Shown: piece by piece, positions 40,567-60,058 of the stretch
How the letters are laid out: each line of letters opens with the position of its first letter
Position numbering within the stretch: position 1 is the stretch's first letter
DNA from: an uncultured Gemmatimonadaceae bacterium
Lineage (GTDB): Bacteria > Gemmatimonadota > Gemmatimonadetes > Gemmatimonadales > Gemmatimonadaceae
Length of the DNA: 64,000 bases
Direction of reading: 5' to 3'
Assembly: GCA_963817955.1 (NCBI GenBank)
Contig: CAWFQK010000004.1
Span: 32,001-96,000, forward strand
Notes under the pieces: model-generated
Databases searched by the model: none
What the model saw: the letters and a program-made list of their open reading frames with translations, nothing else
What the model was told of the DNA's origin: nothing
Position numbers and translations under genes: made by a program

Positions 40567-41202
40567 ATGAAGCAGACCCGGCGCATTGCAGTGCTGACGA
40601 TGGCTCTGGTGTCCGTAGCGGCCCTCGACGCGTGCCACAAGACGCCGGCTCCGGTGCCGGCGCCCGCTCCTGTCGTGGCAAGTCCGAATGCCGATAGTGC
40701 GCGCCGTTCCCAGGAAGACGCAGCCCGCCGTGCCGCGGCCGCGGCTGCCGCCGCATCGGCTGCCGCCGCCCACCGCACCGATTCCATTGCCGCCGCGGAC
40801 GCCGCGGCTCGCGACGCTGCCGCGGCAGCCGCGAATATGCGTGCGACGTTGGCCGCCGTGGTGCATTTCGACTTCGACAAGTCGGATCTTCGGCCGGAAG
40901 ACCGCTCCATTCTCGACGCCAAGGTGCCGATTCTCCAGGCTAACCCCGGCGTGATGCTGCGCGTTGCCGGCAACACCGACGAGCGTGGCTCAGACGAGTA
41001 CAACCTCGCGCTCGGCCAGCGCCGCGCCGCGGCGGTGAAGCAGTACCTCGTGGAGCACGGAATTGATGCATCGCGCATCGAGACCATCAGCTATGGAGAG
41101 GAGCGGCCGGTGGCTCAAGGATCAGATGAAGCCGCCTGGGCGCAAAACCGGCGGGCGGAGTTCGAGATCACGGCCGGCGGGCAGACGCTCCGTCGCCCAT
41201 GA
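40567..41202 (+). CDS. pal: Peptidoglycan-associated lipoprotein
   Basis: Lipobox LDAC, HFDFDKS, DERGSDEYNLALGQRRA, SYGEERP, NRRAEF. Confidence 0.93.
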   Translation: MKQTRRIAVLTMALVSVAALDACHKTPAPVPAPAPVVASPNADSARRSQEDAARRAAAAAAAASAAAAHRTDSIAAADAAARDAAAAAANMRATLAAVVHFDFDKSDLRPEDRSILDAKVPILQANPGVMLRVAGNTDERGSDEYNLALGQRRAAAVKQYLVEHGIDASRIETISYGEERPVAQGSDEAAWAQNRRAEFEITAGGQTLRRP

Positions 41203-42011
41203 GACGCTGGACCTCATTTGCGCCGATCGCGCTGCTTGCGACCGGCGGATGCTTGGCGTCGAAGAGTGACATTCGGCTGATCCAGGACGAGTTGCGCGCC
41301 ACACGCGCGCAACTCGCTTTGGATGACACGTCCATGCTGCGCGCCAACGAGTCACGTCGGTCGCAGATTGCGCAGCTCTCGGCTTCGATCGACCGAATGA
41401 ATGATTCCCTGCGCGTCGCGGCCGCGCGTTTGGCGTCATTTCAGGCGGCGACGACCGGCGAATTCGACGCGATGGGCAAGCAGATGGTGCGGGTTCAAGC
41501 GTTGCTCGACCAATCGACGCGCAACCTGCAGAATGCACAGGCTCAACTCGAGGCACTAAAAGAGCAGGGTGGTGTCCCGTCGGAGCCGGCAGCCGCTGCT
41601 CCGTCGTCCGACACGGCGCGATTGGCGCCATCCGGCCCGGGCCCTTCCACGCTCTTTCTGAGCGCGAAGGACCAGCTCGACACCCGGGCGTACGGCCTGG
41701 CGCGTGCGGGCTTCGAGCGATTGCTCAGCACCTATCCGACATCGGAGCAGGCGCCGCGGGCGCAGTTGTACATCGGCGAAGCGTATAAGGCCGAAGGGAA
41801 CACGGCCGCGGCAGACTCTGTATATCTGCTCGTTGCGAGCAAGTATCCGCGGAGTTCGGCAGCAGCCACTGGCCTGTATCGCCACGGCAAGACGCTGTGG
41901 GATGCGAACAAGAAGGGCGATGCGCGTCCGTATCTGAATCGTGTCATTCGCGAGTTTCCGAACTCCGACGAAGCTCGGCTGGCAAAGGATTTGTTGGGCG
42001 GAAGAGAGTAG
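41199..42011 (+). CDS. cpoB: CpoB/YbgF-like TPR lipoprotein
   Basis: Lipobox-like Cys, coiled coil, C-terminal TPR; follows pal. Confidence 0.75.
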   Translation: MRRWTSFAPIALLATGGCLASKSDIRLIQDELRATRAQLALDDTSMLRANESRRSQIAQLSASIDRMNDSLRVAAARLASFQAATTGEFDAMGKQMVRVQALLDQSTRNLQNAQAQLEALKEQGGVPSEPAAAAPSSDTARLAPSGPGPSTLFLSAKDQLDTRAYGLARAGFERLLSTYPTSEQAPRAQLYIGEAYKAEGNTAAADSVYLLVASKYPRSSAAATGLYRHGKTLWDANKKGDARPYLNRVIREFPNSDEARLAKDLLGGRE

Positions 42012-42026
42012 AGCGTCGGAGCTCGA

Positions 42027-42092
42027 ATGCCGATTCAGAAGTCCCCTTTAGCAGGAACGCCGTTCCTCGATCACCTCGAGGAACGGCGGTGA
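42027..42092 (+). pseudogene. tatC-derived mini-ORF (MPIQKSPLAGTPFLDHLEERR*)
   Basis: 25/26 nt identical to tatC 54896-54921; GGAG upstream; its TGA overlaps the next ATG. Confidence 0.7.
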
Positions 42093-45082
42093 TGCATTAT
42101 CGACTTGCTCGCCGGGACATGACGCAGTGGCTGGTTGCGACGGGATTCGCCTTGGCGATCGGGAGCAGGGGATCGGCGCAGGTGATCCCGCGGTTGCCGA
42201 CGGGACGCCAGGCGCCGGCTGTACCGCGTGACACAACGAAGGATTCCACGCGTCTGAAGTGGCCAGTTCCGGATTCGGTGACGCAGGCGCTGATGAGCAA
42301 GCCTGGGTACTCGATCACGCGCTATCAGGGCGACACGGCTTTCTTTGACGCCGAGCACCGCGCGCTCGACCTGCTGGCATCGAAAACTCGGCGGGCGGCG
42401 GTCGATCGCGATTCGCAAATCGTCGTCAGCGATAGCGGTATTTATTACACGGAGGCGACCCGGCACATCACCACCGGGGGACACTACGTGCTCAGCAGCC
42501 CAGGGTCCGGGCAGGCCGACATCACGGGTCTTGGCCGCGTTGATTACAGTCTGGCCGCACGGACGGCGCGCATCACGCGTGCGCGTCTTCCAGTCAATCA
42601 GGGCGAGATGTGGTACCTCGACGTCGATCTTGCTTCAGTGGTGCAGGACTCGACGGGCGGCCAGGCCAAAGCGACGGCCTACGTGAAGGGCGGCTCACTC
42701 ACCAGCTGCAGCGACTCGATTCCTGACTACCATTTCGAGTACAAGGAAGCAAAGCGGACCGGGAATACGCTGGTTGCGCGGCCGGCCGTGCTGTACATCA
42801 GGGACGTGCCGGTCATGTGGCTGCCATTCATCTTCAGCGATGCCCACAGCGGCCGGCACAGCGGCATCCTGGCCCCGCAATTCGGCATTGGCGATATCGT
42901 CCGCAATAGTCCCACGTATCGTCGGAATGTCGAACATGTTGGCTACTACTGGGCGCTGAACGACTATATGGATGCCAGCACCTGGCTCGATTGGCGCAGC
43001 TCAGCGGGCGCGACGCAGGGCGATCCGGGATGGCTGCGCTACAACGGTGATTGGGATTACCGCTGGCTCGATCGCTTTTTGAGCGGCCGGATCGGCGCCA
43101 ACTATACGCAGCAGCGTGACGGGTTGACGAACCTGGCGTTGAGTTGGTCGCACCAGCAGGACTTCTCGCACGACAGCCACCTCACGACGAATTTCAACTA
43201 CGTCACCAGTACCACGCTGCAGCACCAGAACACGTTCAATCCCTATTCGGCCCTGGCAACGATCTCGTCGCAAGCGAACTATCAGACGAAGCTCGGGCCC
43301 GCGTCGCTCTCGCTCGGCGCGACGCAGAAGCAGTATCCCTCACGCCAGCAGGTGGACCGCACGTTTCCAACGGTCCAACTGACGTCCACGGCCATCGGCA
43401 TTGGCCAGTGGCTGTCGTGGACACCGTCCTTCAGCTTCAGCCGCAGTGACGTGCTGCACATGGATCAGCCGGGACCGGGCGCATTCCTGTTCTCCGTGGA
43501 TCCTACGACGGGGCTTCGTGACAGCACGCTGTCGAAGACGCGCGGGTCCTCGCAGGATGCGATCACGTTCGACACGCCGCTCCAGATATTCGGCTACACG
43601 CTGCGGAATTCGTTCCGCGTGAACCAGCAGCGGTATGACTATGCGCAGCTAACCGATATCTACGACGTGGAAACAGGGGCAATCACCCAGCGAGTGTTTG
43701 CCGCGACGTACCGCACTGACGTCGACTGGACGCCCGACTTCCAGCTCCCCGCGATCGCACGCAACAAATTCAATCTCACACCGAGCTTGAGCTTTCAGAA
43801 TGTCGATCCAGGCTCGTTCTGGGTCGCGACGGAGCGGAGCAACGGCCAGTACGTGCACCAAAGCAAGCGATTTACCGCCGGCCTGGCGGCATCGCCGACG
43901 CTGTTCGGATTCTTCCCGGGGTTCGGGCCGTTCGCGCGCATTCGCCATTCGATCACGCCATCGTTTGGCTATTCGTATGCGCCGAAGACCGACGTCAGCG
44001 ACGAGTACTTGTCGGCCATCGGCGGAACGCGAAAAGGCTACGTCGGCAATCTGCGGCAGAACGCGCTGACTCTTGGGCTGACGCAGAACTTCGAGGCGAA
44101 ATTGCGGGCGCGGGCCGGGGCCGACACGGGAGCCAATGCTCGCAGCGAGACGATTCGCCTGCTCAGCATCAATATGACGTCGCTCACATACGATTTCGAG
44201 CGCGCGGCCAACGCGCGGCTCACGCAAGGGCGCGCGGGGTGGGCCGGACTCACGTCGGAGACGTGGGGTTACTCCGTGAGCTCCGAACTGCTGCCGGGCT
44301 TCGACTTCTCGAGCAATTATTCGCTCTTTCAGGGCAATCCTATCAGCGATACGGCCAAGTTCAAGCCGTTCCTGACGAGCGTATCGGCCTCGTTCAACAT
44401 CAGCCAGCACGAGAACCCTCTCACGGTCCTGTCGCGCCTGTTCGGTCGCGCGGTGCCGCAGGCGCAGGTCTCGCCGACGCCGAGCACGGAAACGGTCCGT
44501 CCGCAGACGGACGCCGGTGAGGTCGCAGCGCTAGCCGCGCAACCCGTCGCCGGCAGCGCGCGTAGCGGCGACAGGTTCCTTCTGCCATCGTCTACGGGAT
44601 GGCGCGCGTCGTTCACGTTCAGCCGTTCGAGCCCCCGTCCGCCCGTTGGCCCCAACGTGATCGAGTATGACCCGACGATCCGCTGCCAGCAGATTGCCGC
44701 CGGCAATCCGTTCCTGCTCGATGCCTGCCTTGCGAACGTACGCGCACAGCCGACGATCGATACGCCGATCACATCGCCGACCGGCGGCAGTCCGGTGTAC
44801 CATATTCCACCCACGACTTCGCTGAATGGCAACATCAATTTCAGCCTCACGCCAAGTTGGACGGCATCGTGGCAGACGACGTACGACTTTGAGCGGCGTC
44901 AGTTTGCCAGCCACATCGTGTCGTTGCAGCGGGAGTTGCACGATTGGCGTGCGATTTTTGGATTCACGCAATCACCTAACGGCAACTTTGCATTCAACTT
45001 CCGCATCGCGCTGAAGGCGGAGCCGGATCTCAAGTTCGATTACAACCGTGCCACCGTGCGATCGGGCGTGGCACCGTTCTAA
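42092..45082 (+). CDS. Putative LPS-assembly outer membrane protein, LptD-like
   Basis: About 1000 aa; TSC...PDYHF, ARPAVLYI..VPVMWLPF, SGILAP; amphipathic beta strands. Confidence 0.75.
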   Translation: MHYRLARRDMTQWLVATGFALAIGSRGSAQVIPRLPTGRQAPAVPRDTTKDSTRLKWPVPDSVTQALMSKPGYSITRYQGDTAFFDAEHRALDLLASKTRRAAVDRDSQIVVSDSGIYYTEATRHITTGGHYVLSSPGSGQADITGLGRVDYSLAARTARITRARLPVNQGEMWYLDVDLASVVQDSTGGQAKATAYVKGGSLTSCSDSIPDYHFEYKEAKRTGNTLVARPAVLYIRDVPVMWLPFIFSDAHSGRHSGILAPQFGIGDIVRNSPTYRRNVEHVGYYWALNDYMDASTWLDWRSSAGATQGDPGWLRYNGDWDYRWLDRFLSGRIGANYTQQRDGLTNLALSWSHQQDFSHDSHLTTNFNYVTSTTLQHQNTFNPYSALATISSQANYQTKLGPASLSLGATQKQYPSRQQVDRTFPTVQLTSTAIGIGQWLSWTPSFSFSRSDVLHMDQPGPGAFLFSVDPTTGLRDSTLSKTRGSSQDAITFDTPLQIFGYTLRNSFRVNQQRYDYAQLTDIYDVETGAITQRVFAATYRTDVDWTPDFQLPAIARNKFNLTPSLSFQNVDPGSFWVATERSNGQYVHQSKRFTAGLAASPTLFGFFPGFGPFARIRHSITPSFGYSYAPKTDVSDEYLSAIGGTRKGYVGNLRQNALTLGLTQNFEAKLRARAGADTGANARSETIRLLSINMTSLTYDFERAANARLTQGRAGWAGLTSETWGYSVSSELLPGFDFSSNYSLFQGNPISDTAKFKPFLTSVSASFNISQHENPLTVLSRLFGRAVPQAQVSPTPSTETVRPQTDAGEVAALAAQPVAGSARSGDRFLLPSSTGWRASFTFSRSSPRPPVGPNVIEYDPTIRCQQIAAGNPFLLDACLANVRAQPTIDTPITSPTGGSPVYHIPPTTSLNGNINFSLTPSWTASWQTTYDFERRQFASHIVSLQRELHDWRAIFGFTQSPNGNFAFNFRIALKAEPDLKFDYNRATVRSGVAPF

Positions 45083-45178: not shown

Positions 45179-45357
45179 GCCGACCGGTGGGCCGACCGCG
45201 ACGGAGCCGCCAGCGACATCCAGCCTGCGGTGCGCCTGGAAGGTGGTCCGGGAGCAGCCGGTCAACGACCCGGAGCCCCATCCCCGCCGCGCAGCCCGAC
45301 GAAAGTGGCCTATCACGCGCTCCTTGAATAACGGGCGTGGCGGGTCGAACTTTCGCC

Positions 45358-46882
45358 ATGCTCAAACAAGTCATCATCGACGGAAATTCCCTCACGCTGG
45401 AGCAGGTAGCGGCGGTGGCGCGCGAGCGCACGCCGGTTTCACTTGCTCCGCAGGCGCGTCTTCGCATCGGCATCACGCGTGCAGTGGTCGAAGACCTGGT
45501 CAGAAACCGGGCGGTGGCCTATGGCGTGACCACCGGATTCGGCAAGCTCTCGGAAATAGCGATCCCGCCTGACCGGCTCGCCGAACTGCAGGTGAACCTG
45601 GTGCGTAGCCACGCCGCGGGCGTCGGCGCGCTGCTGCCGGAACGAGAGGTGCGCGCCATGATGCTGCTGCGCGCCAACGTGATCAGCAAGGGCCACTCGG
45701 GCGCGCGCGCCGATCTAGCCGAGTTGCTCATCGGTATGCTGAACGCCGGGCTGTATCCGCCAGTGCCGGAACAGGGTAGCGTTGGTGCGAGCGGAGACCT
45801 GGCGCCGTTGGCGCATCTCGCACTGTCGTTGATCGGTGAAGGCATCCTGAATTGCGGTGACCAGAGCGGCCCGGCCGCTGAGATGCTTCGCGGTGCCGGC
45901 CTCGCGCCGCTGATACTCGCGTCAAAGGAAGGACTGACGCTGATCAATGGAACGCAGGCGCATACGGCGATCGGCGCGCTGGCGCTTGTCGATGCGCACC
46001 GGCTCTGGCGCGTGGCGCACGTTGCCGGAGCCATGTCCCTCGAGGCGCTTCTCGGCACCCCGGTGGCGTTCGACGCGCGCATTCAGGACGTGCGCGGACA
46101 GATCGGGCAGGCCGCTTCGGCCGCGCTACCTCCGCGAGCTACTGGCCGACAGCGAAATCCGCGAGTCGCATCGGACGAACGACCCGCGCGTGCAAGACGC
46201 CTACGCGCTGCGCTGTATGCCACAGGTTCACGGTCCCGTCCTCGACGCGATCGAATTCGCCGCCGGCGTGATCGGGCGTGAGTTGAACGCGGCGACCGAC
46301 AATCCGCTCGTGTTCGAGAGCGGGGATCTGCTGAGCGGCGGCAATTTCCACGGCCAGTCGGTGGCCATGGCGCTCGATTTTCTCGCCATCGCGCTCACCA
46401 ACCTCGCCACGATCTCCGAGCGGCGCATCGACCGGTTGGTGCACCCGGATCTCAATCAGGGGCTCCCGCCGTTCCTCACGCGAGACGCTGGCGTGAATTC
46501 CGGATTCATGATGGCGCAGGTGACCGCGGCTTCCATCACGAGCGAATGCAAGGTGCTCGCGCATCCGGCGAGCGTGGACACCATTCCGACCGATGGCAAC
46601 AAGGAGGACGTGGTGCCGATGGCGATGGCGGCTGCCTGGAAGCTGCGCCGCGTGGTCAGCAACGTGCGGTATGTCCTGGCCATCGAGTTGATGTGCGCCG
46701 CGCAGGGTCTCGATTTCCGTGCACCACTCCGGTCGGGTCGCGGTGTGATGCATGCCCACGCGGCCGTACGCCGTCGCGTCGCGCCACTCGAGAACGATCG
46801 CGTGCTCTCGGGCGATATCGAAGCGCTCGCCCTCGCGATCCAGAATGATGAAATCATTTCACGCATGACGGCCGACGTATGA
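45358..46882 (+). CDS. hutH: Histidine ammonia-lyase (one indel near 46125)
   Basis: [20 protein letters not shown] (MIO), [23 protein letters not shown]. Confidence 0.95.
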
Positions 46883-54860: not shown

Positions 54861-55655
54861 ATGGCACCTGAGCAAAAGGAACACTTGAGCGAGATGCCGT
54901 TCCTCGATCATCTCGAGGAACTTCGCTGGCGTATTCTGAAGAGCCTGCTGGCGATCGCGATCGCGTTCGCGTTCACGTTTTGGCTCTGCACGGCGTCTGG
55001 CGTGGACATTATCGGGATTGCCATTCAGCCGATTCAGCCGTATCTCCACGGGAAGAAACTCGTTATCATGGGTCCCGTCGAGAAATTCACGCTGCTCCTC
55101 CAAGCCGCCGGTGCCCTGGCATTGGTTATTGCCAGCCCCGTGGTGGGCTATCAGATCTGGGCCTTCCTCATGCCCGCGCTCACGACGAAGGAGCGGAGGG
55201 TGGTCATACCGGTTCTGATTGGTGCCGCGGCACTCTTCGCGGCGGGCATCGCGATGTCGGTGTTCATCTTTGTGCCGGTGACCATGGGCCTGATGGACAG
55301 GCTTCCAGGGGCATCACTCGATGTCATGCTCGTGGCGTCACAGTATTTCGGTTTTCTCTTCGCCGTATCGCTTGCGTTCGGCGCGATGTTCGAGCTCCCG
55401 ATTGCCATCCTCGCTCTGACGGCGCTCGGCCTCGTCACACCACAATTCCTGACCAAGTACCGGCGCCATGCGATCGTCGCCACGCTCGTCGTGTGCGAGA
55501 TCGTCACGCCGGGTGACTTCATCATCTCGACGTTGATGCTGTGGATTCCCGTCTATGCGTTGTACGAGCTCAGCATCATCGTCTCGCGGTTCGTCTATCG
55601 CGCGCGGATGAAGCGGGCGCTGCAGGACGAGAACGCAGGGGCGATTGCGGTGTGA
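54861..55655 (+). CDS. tatC: Twin-arginine translocase TatC
   Basis: MPFLDHLEELRWR, YQIWAF..P.L...ERR, FELP, YRRHA, TP.D, LYE. Confidence 0.93.
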   Translation: MAPEQKEHLSEMPFLDHLEELRWRILKSLLAIAIAFAFTFWLCTASGVDIIGIAIQPIQPYLHGKKLVIMGPVEKFTLLLQAAGALALVIASPVVGYQIWAFLMPALTTKERRVVIPVLIGAAALFAAGIAMSVFIFVPVTMGLMDRLPGASLDVMLVASQYFGFLFAVSLAFGAMFELPIAILALTALGLVTPQFLTKYRRHAIVATLVVCEIVTPGDFIISTLMLWIPVYALYELSIIVSRFVYRARMKRALQDENAGAIAV

Positions 55656-55737
55656 TGGGCAGGTAGCTTGCAGTGTGATGGCCGGTTATCAGGGGCTGAC
55701 AGGTGCGCCGGACATTTGTGCTGATCCGGCTCTAACG

Positions 55738-55855: not shown

Positions 55856-56128
55856 ATGCCAGTGCTAGAAGCCTCGATCTTCGGTCCGATGGAAATCGGC
55901 CTCCTCATGGTGGTCGTGTTGCTGCTCTTTGGAGCCAAGCGAATCCCCGAAATCGCTGGTTCCTTCGGCAAGGGCATCAAGGAATTCAAGAGAAACATGG
56001 ATGACGTGCAGAAATCAATTGAAGCGCCGTTGAATTCGACGTCGACTCGGTCGGCGCTGCCGCCCTCGGACGTGGCCTCGATTCGCGAGGAAAGCGAGTC
56101 CACTCGGGAGCCGAAGCGATTGCTGTAG
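55856..56128 (+). CDS. tatA: Twin-arginine translocase TatA
   Basis: E...VVLLLFGAKRIPEIAGSFGKGIKEFK; SD AAGGAG. Confidence 0.92.
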   Translation: MPVLEASIFGPMEIGLLMVVVLLLFGAKRIPEIAGSFGKGIKEFKRNMDDVQKSIEAPLNSTSTRSALPPSDVASIREESESTREPKRLL

Positions 56129-56146: not shown

Positions 56147-56191
56147 ACGAACGAAAGGGCGGGCCATCGAGTGGCCCGCCCTTTCGTTCGT
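56147..56191. terminator. Bidirectional terminator hairpin between convergent genes
   Basis: ACGAACGAAAGGGCGGGCCA-TCGAG-TGGCCCGCCCTTTCGTTCGT (20-bp perfect stem). Confidence 0.8.
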
Positions 56192-56210: not shown

Positions 56211-58040
56211 TTACGTTTCCGTGCGTCGTGCTGCGGCGTTGATCTGCGTGCGGCGGTCGTCCACCTTCGCGGCCTTCCGCATGTCGTTCAGGAACATCTG
56301 GATCTTCTGCTGGCGGAGCTGCTGCAGACGCGTCGCCCTCTGCGCATCCTTCTGCGCCGCCCATGCCGAACTGTCCGACACCACGCGCTTGTCTACGCGG
56401 AGCACATACACGGCATCGTCGGTCTTCACTGGCTCGCTGACCGCGCCGGTCGGCAGTCCGAACGCCGCACCAATCGCCTCGTTGAACTGACCAATGCCCG
56501 GCACAACGGACGAGCGCGCGAACATCTGAGTCTGCTCGACTTTCTTGTTGGCCTGCTGCGCCGCAGCCTCGAGCGTACTGGTCGCCGCCATCGACGCAAG
56601 CTGCTTTGCTTGCGGCATCAGCTTGTCGAGTTGACGCTGCATTGCTATATGGGCTCGTACCTGCTCCTTCACGTTCTCGAACTTTGGCTCGCCGCCTTCA
56701 CGCAGCGTGTCGAGTCGGGCGAGATAGTAGCCGTTGTCGTCATCGTATAGGTCGCTGGTCTCGCCAGGCTTCGCCCCGCCGAACGCCCAGGCGCTCACAC
56801 TCGGAATCACGACGCCGTTCACCATAGCCGGCTCGCCTTCCGATACCTGGACCTTCGAGATCGTCAGGCCGAGCTTCTTGGCCGCGCTATCGAGTTTGCT
56901 GCCTTGCTCGCTCGCGGCCGCCATACGCGACAGCTGATCGGCTTCCTTGTCGATCCGCGTCGCGGTCGAATCGCTCGCCTGGATGCGCACCAAGATGTGG
57001 TGGAGCGACAGCGTGTCGCCCTTCTTGCTATCCACTCTAATGAGGTGAAATCCGAACGGTGTCAGGACGGGCTGTGACACTTCGCCCACCGGCAGTGCGT
57101 ACGCAGCCTTCTCGAACTCGGAGACGAAGCGGCCCTTGCCGCCCTTGCCGAGTTCGCCGCCGTTCCTTCCAGACACCGTGTCAGCCGACTCGCGCTTTGC
57201 GACATCCTCGAACTTCGCGCCCTTCACGATCTCGTCGCGAAGCTTGAGAGCGTGGTCACGCGCTGCCGCGGTATCCGCCGCCGTGGTCACGCGAGGAATC
57301 GTGACGAGCGACAGGACGGCCCGGCCCGAGCCTTGAAAATCCGCCTTGTGCTGATCGAAGTACGTCTTCAGGTCGGCATCGGAAATCGCGTTCGCGGCCG
57401 CCGCATCGAGTGTCGGAGTGAACGAGACGTAGCTGACCTGCGCACTATCGTGCTGGTCGCGCCAGGCGCGCCACAACTCCGCGTCGGTGACGTACACGCC
57501 CGACGCGATCTGGTCGAACAGCTTCTCTCGCGGAATCTCGGTGCGATAGTAGTTCTCCAGCGATACGAGCAGACCGCCCTGACGCGCCTGCGGGCTCGCC
57601 AGGAGCCGCTGGTACTTGTCGGGGTCGAAGCGCCCTTCCGTCTGAAGCTCTGGGGCCTGCGTGATCCACGGCGGCGGTGCGTATTGCGCGAATTCGCGCA
57701 CCTCGTCGTCCGTCACGACGATGTTGCGACGACGGTACTCGCCCTGCAGCAGGATGTTCGATACCATCTGATCGAAAACACTGTTCTCGATCCGGCGCGT
57801 ATCGTCCAGGGTTAGACTGCGCCCCTCCCGTTGCTGTGCCGCCTGGATCTCCTGCTGGACTTGGGCGGTGAATTGCTGGTAAGGGATATCTTGACCGTTG
57901 ACGACTGCCACCGCGGTGGTTGCCGTGACGGGGTTGCGGCCCATGAGGCCGGAGGTTTCATAGAGGAGGAAACCTCCGACGAATACCACGGCGACGAGCA
58001 CCCAGATGTACTTGGCCAAGCCCCGCATCTGTTGCAGCAC
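56211..58040 (-). CDS. SurA/PpiD-like parvulin peptidyl-prolyl isomerase
   Basis: N-terminal TM, SurA-N, FEDVAKRESAD..NGGELG, EFEKAA, PFGFHLI. Confidence 0.88.
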   Translation of the reverse strand: MLQQMRGLAKYIWVLVAVVFVGGFLLYETSGLMGRNPVTATTAVAVVNGQDIPYQQFTAQVQQEIQAAQQREGRSLTLDDTRRIENSVFDQMVSNILLQGEYRRRNIVVTDDEVREFAQYAPPPWITQAPELQTEGRFDPDKYQRLLASPQARQGGLLVSLENYYRTEIPREKLFDQIASGVYVTDAELWRAWRDQHDSAQVSYVSFTPTLDAAAANAISDADLKTYFDQHKADFQGSGRAVLSLVTIPRVTTAADTAAARDHALKLRDEIVKGAKFEDVAKRESADTVSGRNGGELGKGGKGRFVSEFEKAAYALPVGEVSQPVLTPFGFHLIRVDSKKGDTLSLHHILVRIQASDSTATRIDKEADQLSRMAAASEQGSKLDSAAKKLGLTISKVQVSEGEPAMVNGVVIPSVSAWAFGGAKPGETSDLYDDDNGYYLARLDTLREGGEPKFENVKEQVRAHIAMQRQLDKLMPQAKQLASMAATSTLEAAAQQANKKVEQTQMFARSSVVPGIGQFNEAIGAAFGLPTGAVSEPVKTDDAVYVLRVDKRVVSDSSAWAAQKDAQRATRLQQLRQQKIQMFLNDMRKAAKVDDRRTQINAAARRTET

Positions 58041-58234
58041 GGGATGAAACTCCGTAGCGCTGGAGGGAAGGAATAAACCGACGAGCCAAGCTGGAGAAGT
58101 TAGGACCCGACATGGGCTAAAATCAAGTGATGGTGTGACTTCTGATTGACTGTTCGCGTCAGCGCGGTGTATTATCCGCTTTCGTCCCGGTCCCGGGCTT
58201 CGGCCCTCATTCGCGATCCGCATCGAGGGCAACA

Positions 58235-60058
58235 ATGGCCAGTTCCGCGCGCATCGACGAGCTACGAAAAAAATTCGACGAGAACCCGCGGCGGTACTTC
58301 GCTCCCCTCGCCAACGAGTACCGCAAGGCCGGCGATCTCGAGCAGGCGATCTTCATTTGTCAGGAGTACCTGCCCCAGCAGCCGGGCCACATGAGCGGCC
58401 ACATCGTCTATGGTCAGGCCCTCTATGAAATGGGTCGCCACGACGAGGCCCGCGCGGTCTTCGAGACTGCCTTATCGCTCGATCCAGAGAATCTGATCGC
58501 TCTCCGGCACCTCGGTGACATTGCCCGCGAGTCTGGCGACACAGACAGCGCCCGCGTCTGGTATCAGCGTGTGCTCGAAGCTGATCCGCGCAATGAGGAG
58601 ATCGCTCAGATCATGATCTCGCTGCTCGCCTCTCCGGTCGAGCGTGCCTCGGCGGGCGATGCGGGTTTGCATGTCGAAAAATCCGAGGAATCCGAGATAC
58701 CCGCCGAGCCGAGCGTTTCGACGTCGAGCGGGCTGGCCGGCCCAGACTTCGAAGCCGTATCAGACTTCGATGCTCTATCAAATCTCGAAGCCGTATCAGA
58801 CTCCGAAGTCTTTCTAGACTCAGAAGCCGTACCGGTTTCGGACGGTGACGTCACCGAAGAGGACGCGTTGCCGATCGTGGCCTCAGCATCGGCTGCCCCT
58901 GAGGTCGATGACGGTCTCCTCGACTTCGGCGATTTCAGCATCGGCGGCCTCGGTGTTCCAGTGTCGGCCGGCGAGTCGGATGACGTGTTGGAACAGCCGT
59001 CAGCCGCCGACGCCGGCATCGACACGGCCAGCGAAGAAGAGCCGTTCGAGGCCGATCCGTTTGCAATCGCAGGCGCATCCTTACTGGGCGAGCCCGAGTC
59101 TCCGGACATGACGGAACCGCTGGCCAACACGGAGCCGCCTGTCGTCGAGTTCGCGACGGACCTTACCCTCGGATTAGCGGACGACTCGGCAACGGTCTCC
59201 AATGAGCCACCGCAGGACGCGCAGATCGACGGACTGGAAACCTTCGAGTCCGGATTCCCCACAGAGGAAGAGACCGTACCCGCATCGGCATTCGTTACGG
59301 AGACGATGGCTCAGCTCTACCTGGAGCAGGGGCATCTCGAGTCTGCAGTGGACATCTACCGTCAGCTCGTGGAGCAGCGTCCGGAGGATGCGCATCTCAG
59401 CGAGCGCCTGCGCACTCTCACAGAACAAGCGCACGGCGCGCCTGCGTCTGCTGCTGCCGGAGACAGCGTTCCCGAGGAGCCGGCGAGCGCCGGCGGACCG
59501 ACCATTCGCGAGTTCCTGAGTGAATTGGTCGCGCGCCGGCCCCTCAGCGTCGAGACACCCCTGCAAGTCGCGGACAGTGAGATGAGCGAAGGCTCGGTTG
59601 CGGCGGACACCCTGCTCACCGACATGCAGGTGGCGGTCGAGCTGGATACGGAACGCACGGCCGAGCCAGGATCCAGTCGTCCATCACCGTCGCCCTCGAG
59701 CGACACGGTGAGCGGGTCGATCGATGTCTTGTTCTCAGGCGCCGAGCGGTCAGTTTCAGATACACCGGCCGCAAGCACATTCGCCGAGGCGTTCGGGCCG
59801 AAGGACGCTGAAACGGAACCGTTGCAGGGGGTGCCGGCGCATCGGGCATCGAGCGAGTTGTCGCTCGACCATGTCTTCAAGGGCAACAAGCCGCCCAAGT
59901 CGGACGAGGATCCTGATGGCTTCTCGTTCGACCAGTTCTTCTCCGAAGATGCGACGGATTCCTCGAGGCCCGGTTCGGAAGGCGGCACGCAGGCGCAGGA
60001 ACCGACGGATGACATCGCGCAGTTCCACGCGTGGCTCAACGGACTCAAGAAAACGTGA
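58235..60058 (+). CDS. TPR protein with a long acidic linker
   Basis: N-terminal TPRs, TETMAQLYLEQGH motif, C-terminal F.AWL.GLK. Confidence 0.72.
   Translation: MASSARIDELRKKFDENPRRYFAPLANEYRKAGDLEQAIFICQEYLPQQPGHMSGHIVYGQALYEMGRHDEARAVFETALSLDPENLIALRHLGDIARESGDTDSARVWYQRVLEADPRNEEIAQIMISLLASPVERASAGDAGLHVEKSEESEIPAEPSVSTSSGLAGPDFEAVSDFDALSNLEAVSDSEVFLDSEAVPVSDGDVTEEDALPIVASASAAPEVDDGLLDFGDFSIGGLGVPVSAGESDDVLEQPSAADAGIDTASEEEPFEADPFAIAGASLLGEPESPDMTEPLANTEPPVVEFATDLTLGLADDSATVSNEPPQDAQIDGLETFESGFPTEEETVPASAFVTETMAQLYLEQGHLESAVDIYRQLVEQRPEDAHLSERLRTLTEQAHGAPASAAAGDSVPEEPASAGGPTIREFLSELVARRPLSVETPLQVADSEMSEGSVAADTLLTDMQVAVELDTERTAEPGSSRPSPSPSSDTVSGSIDVLFSGAERSVSDTPAASTFAEAFGPKDAETEPLQGVPAHRASSELSLDHVFKGNKPPKSDEDPDGFSFDQFFSEDATDSSRPGSEGGTQAQEPTDDIAQFHAWLNGLKKT
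58745..58834 (+). repeat. 18-bp in-frame tandem repeat, 5 copies
   Basis: GACTTCGAAGCCGTATCA and four variants encoding DFEAVS/DFDALS/NLEAVS/DSEVFL/DSEAVP. Confidence 0.8.

Follow-up and report, generated by a model that had tools for sequence, protein, structure and literature searches.

Overview of the locus

The window analysed here is a 64,000-nt stretch of the genome of an uncultured Gemmatimonadaceae bacterium (GCA_963817955.1, contig CAWFQK010000004.1, positions 32,001-96,000 of the forward strand; whole assembly 4.53 Mb). Its central feature is a 21-codon open reading frame (ORF) with a hairpin, here called the mini-ORF, that lies between the last gene of a tol-pal cluster and an lptD-like gene and is the stub of a former tatC gene. 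The gene order by Pfam is TolQ, TolR, TonB/TolA-like, TolB, Pal/OmpA, CpoB-like TPR, the stub and LptD_2, with an intact TatC gene further downstream at 54861-55655. The features at and around the stub are as follows:

41199-42011, + strand: cpoB/ybgF-like TPR gene (Pfam TPR_6, TPR_14, YfiO), the last gene of the tol-pal cluster, adjoining the 5' side of the stub
42018-42021, + strand: GGAG Shine-Dalgarno (SD) sequence of the native tatC, kept 5 nt ahead of ATG 42027
42027-42092, + strand: mini-ORF, 21 codons plus TGA, matching codons 1-21 of the native tatC and ended by a mutated Trp22 codon (TGG to TGA)
42027-42122, + strand: whole scar of the native tatC, 96 nt, from ancestral ATG to ancestral TGA in one frame; the deletion lies within 42100-42117
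42058-42088, + strand: hairpin with a 13-bp perfect stem and a 5-nt loop; its core, 42062-42084, is the family-wide conserved tatC hairpin of codons 12-20
42078-42083, + strand: SD-like GAGGAA in the 3' arm of the hairpin, 7 nt before GTG 42089 and 10 nt before ATG 42092; putative ribosome-binding site
42089-42094, + strand: GTG-ATG, candidate new lptD start(s), in the lptD frame
42119-42122, + strand: ATGA, the ancestral lptD start overlapping the ancestral tatC stop, at the homologous place in relatives
42092-45082, + strand: lptD-like outer-membrane protein gene (Pfam LptD_2, E = 1.7e-34), 996 aa from ATG 42092

Origin of the mini-ORF

The mini-ORF, from ATG 42027, encodes MPIQKSPLAGTPFLDHLEERR; its TGA, at 42090-42092, shares a base with ATG 42092-42094 of the lptD frame. 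A preliminary description of this locus had reported the GGAG sequence, ATG 42027, the mini-ORF and the TGA/ATG overlap with lptD, all of which are present. It had also proposed that tatC once lay between cpoB and lptD and was internally deleted, and had asked whether relatives have the order cpoB-tatC-lptD. Synteny in the genus and a codon-by-codon alignment of the remnant bear out the former proposal, and the order is the rule within the genus as well as in two further genera of its family.

The comparison set comprised 30 other species of the genus, the nearest of which has approximately 74% DNA identity. In 29 of these 30 genomes tatC sequence is found directly 3' of cpoB: 24 have an intact tatC ORF at this place, one (G044) has a tatC demonstrated by tblastn, one (G022) has a tatC truncated by the contig end, and three (G002, G005 and G023) have a tatC with internal frame disruptions. 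The remaining genome (G041, 74% complete) gave no match to the query. None of the 30 shows the deletion seen in the window. Orthologs of cpoB adjoin tatC on its upstream side, and the same GGAG precedes the tatC ATG in several relatives. G018 illustrates the arrangement, with the order tolB-pal-cpoB-tatC-lptD and a TatC of 263 aa that begins MPIPKSESGEMPFLDHLEELRWR, its stop overlapping the lptD start. By DNA search, the distance from the end of cpoB to the lptD match is approximately 0.7 kb longer in relatives than in the window. In the two other genera, cpoB precedes tatC at 22 of 22 loci and lptD follows tatC at 18 of 22, the remaining loci ending first. Twelve metagenome loci were found with CpoB: tatC follows cpoB in eight and the other four end too early. 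The 12 are all from other species, with no scar in any; over most of cpoB the closest of them are 54-61% identical (a single 61-residue CpoB fragment reaches 70%), and a 30-mer spanning the junction had no match in the metagenome contigs.

The three disrupted native tatC copies (L011 in G002, L023 in G005 and L027 in G023) are all interrupted within residues 30-120, and each of these genomes holds a second tatC elsewhere. Either the native copy has decayed repeatedly where a second tatC is present, or the disruptions are indel errors of assembly.

The mini-ORF aligns without gaps to MPIPKSxxGEMPFLDHLEELRW of 28 native orthologs, and the ungapped alignment to their consensus extends from ATG 42027 to approximately 42100-42114 (tatC codons 1 to approximately 30). 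Read through its first stop, the scar gives MPIQKSPLAGTPFLDHLEERR, stop, CIIDLLAGT, stop, against MPIPKSxxGEMPFLDHLEELRWRIIYSLxA in the native proteins. Homology to TatC (PF00902) thus holds without gaps over the first 31 codons of the 28 orthologs, at a position between cpoB and lptD that is orthologous to that of tatC. There is no full-length, six-helix TatC ORF at the stub, where the first stop comes after 21 codons and the ancestral one after 31. The orthologs have 256-288 codons (most often 263), and the loss amounts to approximately 232 codons (approximately 0.7 kb), in frame, leaving a scar of 31 codons and a stop. The break can be placed only to 42100-42117, where the sequence is G+C-rich and simple; the TGA within the ATGA of 42119-42122 shares its frame with ATG 42027. 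Judged by alignment and position, the stub is the decayed 5' end of the lineage's own tatC, a pseudogene stub rather than a TatC. The same comparisons show an ancestral order of tol-pal-cpoB-tatC-lptD, with the tatC stop overlapping the lptD start.

The initial proposal required revision as to the stop. The start and stop of tatC were both said to have been kept. The SD sequence and ATG are indeed native, but TGA 42090 aligns with the codon for the invariant Trp22 and is therefore not the stop of tatC itself: the mini-ORF ends at a nonsense change, and the ancestral stop is at 42119-42122. The ending GCGGTGATG was accordingly rejected as the end of tatC, as it aligns with native codons 21-23 (CGG TGG CGN). 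A deletion break at 42084/42085 was also rejected, as native homology runs on to approximately 42100-42114.

A conserved hairpin within tatC

Positions 42059-42084 match 54896-54921, within the intact tatC of the window, at 25 of 26 nt (CAC versus CAT). The stem formed by 42058-42070 and 42076-42088 has 13 perfect pairs around the loop TCACC and a predicted energy of -24.2 kcal/mol when folded alone; the copy in the intact tatC has 9 pairs (-14.1 kcal/mol). Both the match and the difference in stem length, first noticed in the preliminary description, were reproduced. The 26-mer occurs at these two places only in the whole assembly, with up to three mismatches allowed, and had no matches in 100 shuffles of the window. 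Rather than a recent duplication, the match reflects a hairpin-forming motif whose nucleotide sequence most tatC genes of the family conserve. The same 24-46 nt are found at 88-96% identity in the tatC of other genera and families, so the match carries no information on a recent duplication. Among genomes with two matches to the motif, G353 and G402 were compared for a second scar and have none, each having two ordinary cpoB-tatC loci; the loci of G210 and G220 lie outside this comparison.

The 28 native orthologs share 97 columns with an invariant, degenerate amino acid. Codons with a third base paired in the stem are fixed in 28 of 28 sequences (P12 CCG, L14 CTC, L17 CTC and E18 GAG), and F13 is TTC in 27 and TTT in one, the latter giving a U.G pair. 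E19 is GAA in 13 and GAG in 15, either of which pairs with U. The codons of the loop vary (D15, GAT in 22 and GAC in 6; H16, CAC in 19 and CAT in 9), and the remaining 17 invariant Leu columns each have a codon entropy of at least 0.81. A summed entropy this low is found in 14 of 186,732 column sets with the same amino acids (exact test, p = 7.5e-5). In a draw of 401 genomes of the family, 331 encode PFLDHLEE with CTN leucines, and 298 of these (90%) keep the pair-preserving codons CTY, CTY and GAG; the draw includes four unpublished genomes (G336, G079, G178 and G078), without which the counts are 327 and 294, of 397 genomes. The pair-preserving set is rarer in some genera (g21 and g22), and the stem is absent from second tatC copies of the MPMVDHLEE type.

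Because variation is confined to the loop and to positions that tolerate wobble, the pattern favours, but does not prove, an RNA structure rather than a DNA site at tatC codons 12-20. The hairpin pairs an SD-like GAGGA with UUCCUC, a mimic of the anti-SD sequence. Rfam gave no matches at E <= 1 in 41800-42300. The hairpin does not have the form of an intrinsic (Rho-independent) terminator, as GTGATGCATTATCG follows the stem and there is no T run, and neither terminator-like nor promoter-like sites were found in 41000-42600.

At 42069-42077, in the loop and 3' arm, GATCACCTC exactly repeats 9 nt from the 3' end of 16S rRNA, which in this genome is the canonical GGATCACCTCCTTA. This identity is probably a coincidence, because the third bases of D15 and H16 vary among relatives.

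Sequence changes in the scar

Among the columns that are invariant in the 28 orthologs, 0 of 18 have changed in the hairpin core (42062-42084), compared with 11 of 30 in the rest of codons 2-31 (Fisher one-sided p = 0.0024; with the alignment cut at 42114, 9 of 28 and p = 0.006). The altered invariant residues include G9A, E10G, M11T, L20R, W22stop, R23C and Y26D. With so many invariant residues altered, the coding function must have been lost some time ago, and it is very unlikely that an intact gene was mis-assembled.

The 13-bp stem itself is mostly ancestral. The ancestral stem comprises 9 bp, a C.U mismatch, two G-C pairs and a possible U.G pair, and the hairpin in the 28 relatives has energies from -12.7 to -17.1 kcal/mol (median -17.1). 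Two substitutions, T to C at 42058 and T to G at 42085, convert the mismatch and the wobble to G-C and yield the perfect stem. Given that those two sites changed, we estimate the chance that both changes would make Watson-Crick pairs at approximately 1 in 9. Quasi-palindromes can be corrected to perfect palindromes by template switching. The changes at 42058 and 42085 likewise turn an imperfect ancestral repeat into a perfect one of 13 bp, and in a single genome such correction is inseparable from selection for a stronger stem: both fit. A further pair of adjacent substitutions, TGGCG to TGATG, made the stop of the mini-ORF and the in-frame ATG 42092 together.

Position of the lptD start

Sequence continues past tatC in 27 relatives. 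Of these, 26 share an [A/G]TGA in which the first codon of lptD runs into the TGA of tatC; G008 alone differs, with a TAG and then, 5 nt on, a GTG. The start codon is GTG in 25 of the 27 and ATG in two, and LptD has one or two K/R in residues 2-6 in 25 of 27 (for example MKRW, MRRW and MIRR). In the window, LptD translated from the homologous ATG 42119 would begin MTQWLVATGFALAIG (MTQW), with no K/R before the hydrophobic core, while from ATG 42092 it would begin MHYRLARRDMTQW (MHYRLARRD), with three Arg. At ATG 42119 the overlapping stop is gone, and the preceding bases, ttgctcgccgggac, offer no usable SD-like tract but only a GGGA 2 nt away. Taken together, the N-terminal charge, the lost overlap and the positions of the SD-like sequences suggest that the lptD start has moved, and that it probably now lies at 42089 or 42092, 27-30 nt upstream of the old one.

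Leader model and alternatives

From the anatomy and ancestry of the stub, the nucleotide-level constraint on its stem and the pattern of its substitutions, we infer that ribosomes still translate the stub and that it has become a leader for lptD, acting through the hairpin; we place the probability of this at roughly one in two. In this genome a foreign-type tatC stands beside tatA, and the native gene has been reduced by the in-frame deletion of approximately 0.7 kb and the Trp22 nonsense change. Under the model, the lptD start would have been re-seated 27-30 nt upstream, at GTG 42089 or ATG 42092. The SD-like GAGGAA would be locked in the 3' arm of the -24 kcal/mol hairpin, paired to UUCCUC, and unaided initiation at 42089/42092 is expected to be poor. 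Ribosomes loaded at the native SD sequence and ATG 42027 would read codons 11-21 through the stem, melting the hairpin, and would halt at UGA 42090, then either re-initiating at the overlapping start or leaving it exposed. The outcome would be a return of the translational coupling that the tatC overlap formerly gave to lptD. The anatomy is that of a leader ORF in that the stub has its own SD sequence and start (GGAG, 5 nt, ATG 42027) upstream of lptD on the same strand. Codons 11-21 of the mini-ORF span the stem, which ends 1 nt before GTG 42089 and 4 nt before ATG 42092, and which would sequester GAGGAA as a ribosome-binding site only if lptD starts there.

Several points weigh against this model. 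The scar is found in one genome only, and in G+C-rich DNA an open frame as short as 21 codons could well occur by chance. The peptide is altered at residues invariant in TatC (G9A, E10G, M11T and L20R) and shows no sign of selection. The hairpin is ancestral and is conserved in operons in which lptD starts approximately 730 nt downstream of it, so its survival may reflect an old role rather than coupling, and the perfecting of a quasi-palindrome can be a mutational bias (template switching) without selection. The lptD start on which the model depends is itself deduced from sequence, and two relatives, M082 and M083, likewise have no K/R at LptD residues 2-6, which keeps the charge argument from being decisive.

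The alternative that survives best is a neutral scar: the stub would be the leftover of a deletion, LptD would start at 42119 independently of the mini-ORF, and the hairpin would have been kept by its ancestral role (for example, in the stability or processing of the mRNA just 3' of cpoB) or by template switching. We regard this as a live possibility, somewhat short of an even chance. It accommodates the constraint on the hairpin in intact tatC genes, approximately 730 nt from lptD, as well as the preserved place of the hairpin approximately 50 nt past the cpoB stop, the degenerate peptide and the two relatives without the N-terminal K/R, and an in-frame deletion has a 1 in 3 chance anyway. 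It fits less well with the state of ATG 42119, which no longer has an overlapping stop or the G-rich tract found ahead of the start in relatives, and after which both positive charges are gone. Nor does it account for what lies just upstream: an in-frame GTG-ATG, whose ATG arose by two adjacent substitutions, with the SD-like GAGGAA and three Arg.

An assembly artefact, in which a full tatC was collapsed by the assembler at the hairpin, is very unlikely. No read or contig spans 42015-42265: parts of the stretch occur in four soil-metagenome runs of a single study, always on short contigs of low depth that leave this interval uncovered, so that the junction is neither confirmed nor refuted by them. 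The search for runs containing the stretch yielded no RNA run. The split gene for an aromatic lyase nearby (see below) indicates that small assembly errors are possible. However, a collapsed intact gene would keep its invariant codons, whereas what is left of this one differs at several codons that never vary in the 28 orthologs, among them G9, E10, M11, L20, W22 (now a stop), R23 and Y26. The N-terminus of LptD has changed in step, the genome has a different intact tatC, and the break is approximately 15-30 nt past the hairpin and not at it.

A broader extension of the leader model is tentative and, in our judgement, unlikely to hold in full. According to it, the hairpin would be an undescribed cis-acting RNA element of the tol-pal-cpoB-tatC-lptD operon throughout the family, acting independently of the TatC protein; in this genome it would have outlived its host gene and, with the stub, been rebuilt by a few point changes into a leader-ORF/hairpin switch that gates translation of LptD.

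The intact tatC

The only intact tatC of the genome lies downstream of lptD, next to tatA:

54861-55655, + strand: intact tatC, a xenolog whose type is native to a different genus of this family; DNA homology to that type over 54890-55660
55856-56128, + strand: tatA, native at its place; the foreign tatC is inserted between the DUF4321 gene and tatA

The encoded TatC is 44-49% identical to the native TatC proteins of the genus, which are 69-78% identical to that of G018, and 76-80% identical to the TatC of the genus g56. A database search returned many 253-aa relatives at 76-81% identity, labelled as proteins of Gemmatimonadales or Gemmatimonadaceae metagenome-assembled genomes. In a draw of 400 genomes of the family there were 22 matches at E <= 1e-75, all in g56 (53-79%) or g39 (51-56%), and none in the 14 genomes of the bacterium's own genus. 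The gene does not belong to the native tatC clade of the genus: in a phylogenetic tree the 21 native tatC rows form a clade with 98/93 support and the window gene is outside on a long branch, with the caveat that the tool warns of long branches meeting at this gene.

In g56 and g39 the foreign-type gene sits within cpoB-tatC-lptD. The CpoB of this genome is 26-36% and the N-terminal part of its LptD 33-47% identical to those of the two genera (against the four closest g56 genomes, CpoB 26-32% and LptD 41-44%), and DNA homology to g56 genes is limited to window positions 54890-55660. In relatives, which have polyprenyl synthase, DUF4321 and tatA genes but no tatC here, the interval of 1.68 kb in the window measures approximately 0.4 kb. 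This marks the foreign tatC as an insertion of approximately 1.3 kb, immediately 5' of tatA. In g56 the stop of tatC and the ATG of lptD overlap in the sequence TGATG, and the window copy keeps TGATGGGCAGGTAG, a dead start. The ending GCGGTGTGATG of this gene is thus explained by inheritance of a g56-type tatC-lptD junction. Its likeness to the GCGGTGATG of the stub, to which the preliminary description had drawn attention, is present in the sequence, but it is a coincidence of two different origins.

On these comparisons the gene at 54861 is a xenolog, neither the source of the stub nor a relocated original. It is extremely improbable that it is the native tatC, moved or copied 12.8 kb downstream before the original was deleted, as the 25/26-nt identity and the similar GCGGTG(TG)ATG ending could suggest, given its greater identity to g56 (76-80%, versus 44-49% to the native clade), its place outside the 98/93-supported clade of the genus, the presence of the same 24-26 nt at approximately 88-96% identity in tatC of other genera and families, and the fit of its TGATG ending to the g56 junction.

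The genome has a further foreign-type copy, 75% identical and without the first 45 codons (G000:C4:1274982-1275599, equivalent to locus L063 3983-4600, outside the window). A stop lies directly upstream of it, and minus-strand ORFs beside it may, to judge from their translations, be defence or mobile genes. The foreign-type TatC proteins (54861-54893 in the window; loci L101-L109) have a conserved 11-codon extension before MPFLDHLEE, with ATG, GTG, TTG or CTG at the homologous place, while database entries start them at an internal Met (253 aa). With this extension, the hairpin starts approximately 35 nt after the likely true start in both types of tatC.

Other features of the window

A gene for an aromatic amino-acid (histidine/phenylalanine) ammonia-lyase at 45337-46882 is split into two overlapping ORFs (45337-46281 and 45947-46882), which match Pfam Lyase_aromatic positions 1-245 and 246-465; it may be a frameshifted pseudogene or the result of a small assembly indel. 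The 45 nt at 56147-56191, just past tatA, are their own reverse complement at 96%. Situated between tatA and the convergent gene 56211-58235, this inverted repeat may terminate transcription in both directions.

Comparison with known systems

Overlapping stop and start codons (ATGA, TGATG) couple translation in bacterial operons. The overlap of the tatC stop with the lptD start in 26 of 27 relatives resembles this classical coupling, and the scar recreates an overlap at 42090-42094. What sets the locus apart from the classical case is that a pseudogene stub of 21 codons takes the place of the upstream cistron and that a nonsense change inside the old gene produced the overlap. Xenologous gene displacement is likewise a known phenomenon. 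Horizontal transfer of tatC, and multiple homologues within a single species, have been reported (PMC3827258). Similarly, a foreign-type tatC is present here, and the native one has been lost; the displacement differs in having taken place at another locus (by tatA) and in having left a datable scar at the native locus, within an envelope-biogenesis operon.

The closest parallel to the leader model is mgtQ of Salmonella, an 8-codon ORF between mgtC and mgtB whose translation frees the mgtB ribosome-binding sequence from a stem-loop; this system has been tested experimentally and depends on acidic codons that destabilise the ribosome (PMC8092293). Both are short ORFs within an operon rather than in a 5' untranslated region; in the present case the ORF crosses the whole stem, and GAGGAA is in its 3' arm. 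Unlike mgtQ, the ORF here is the remnant of a real gene and ends in a TGATG stop-start overlap, and its role is a predicted one. Full-text literature searching turned up, by title or abstract, no tatC-lptD arrangement, no hairpin in the tatC coding region and no gene remnant acting as a leader ORF, which is no proof that none is in print.

Significance

The locus combines two known kinds of phenomena: a gene remnant left by xenologous replacement and, plausibly, coupling through a leader ORF and a hairpin. The conserved RNA structure predicted inside tatC is possibly new. In most genomes of this family of soil bacteria, the constraint on synonymous sites points to such an uncatalogued structure within the gene.

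The locus also offers a stepwise record of how an operon adjusts when a foreign gene takes over from an internal member that was translationally coupled. What is left of the dead gene, which was trimmed and not erased, is a ribosome-binding site, a start codon and a structured element, and the start of the next gene appears to have been re-seated on the stub. Should the coupling prove real, gene scars could be a source of small leader ORFs, and annotators would have grounds to regard tiny ORFs before essential genes as possible remnants of this kind.

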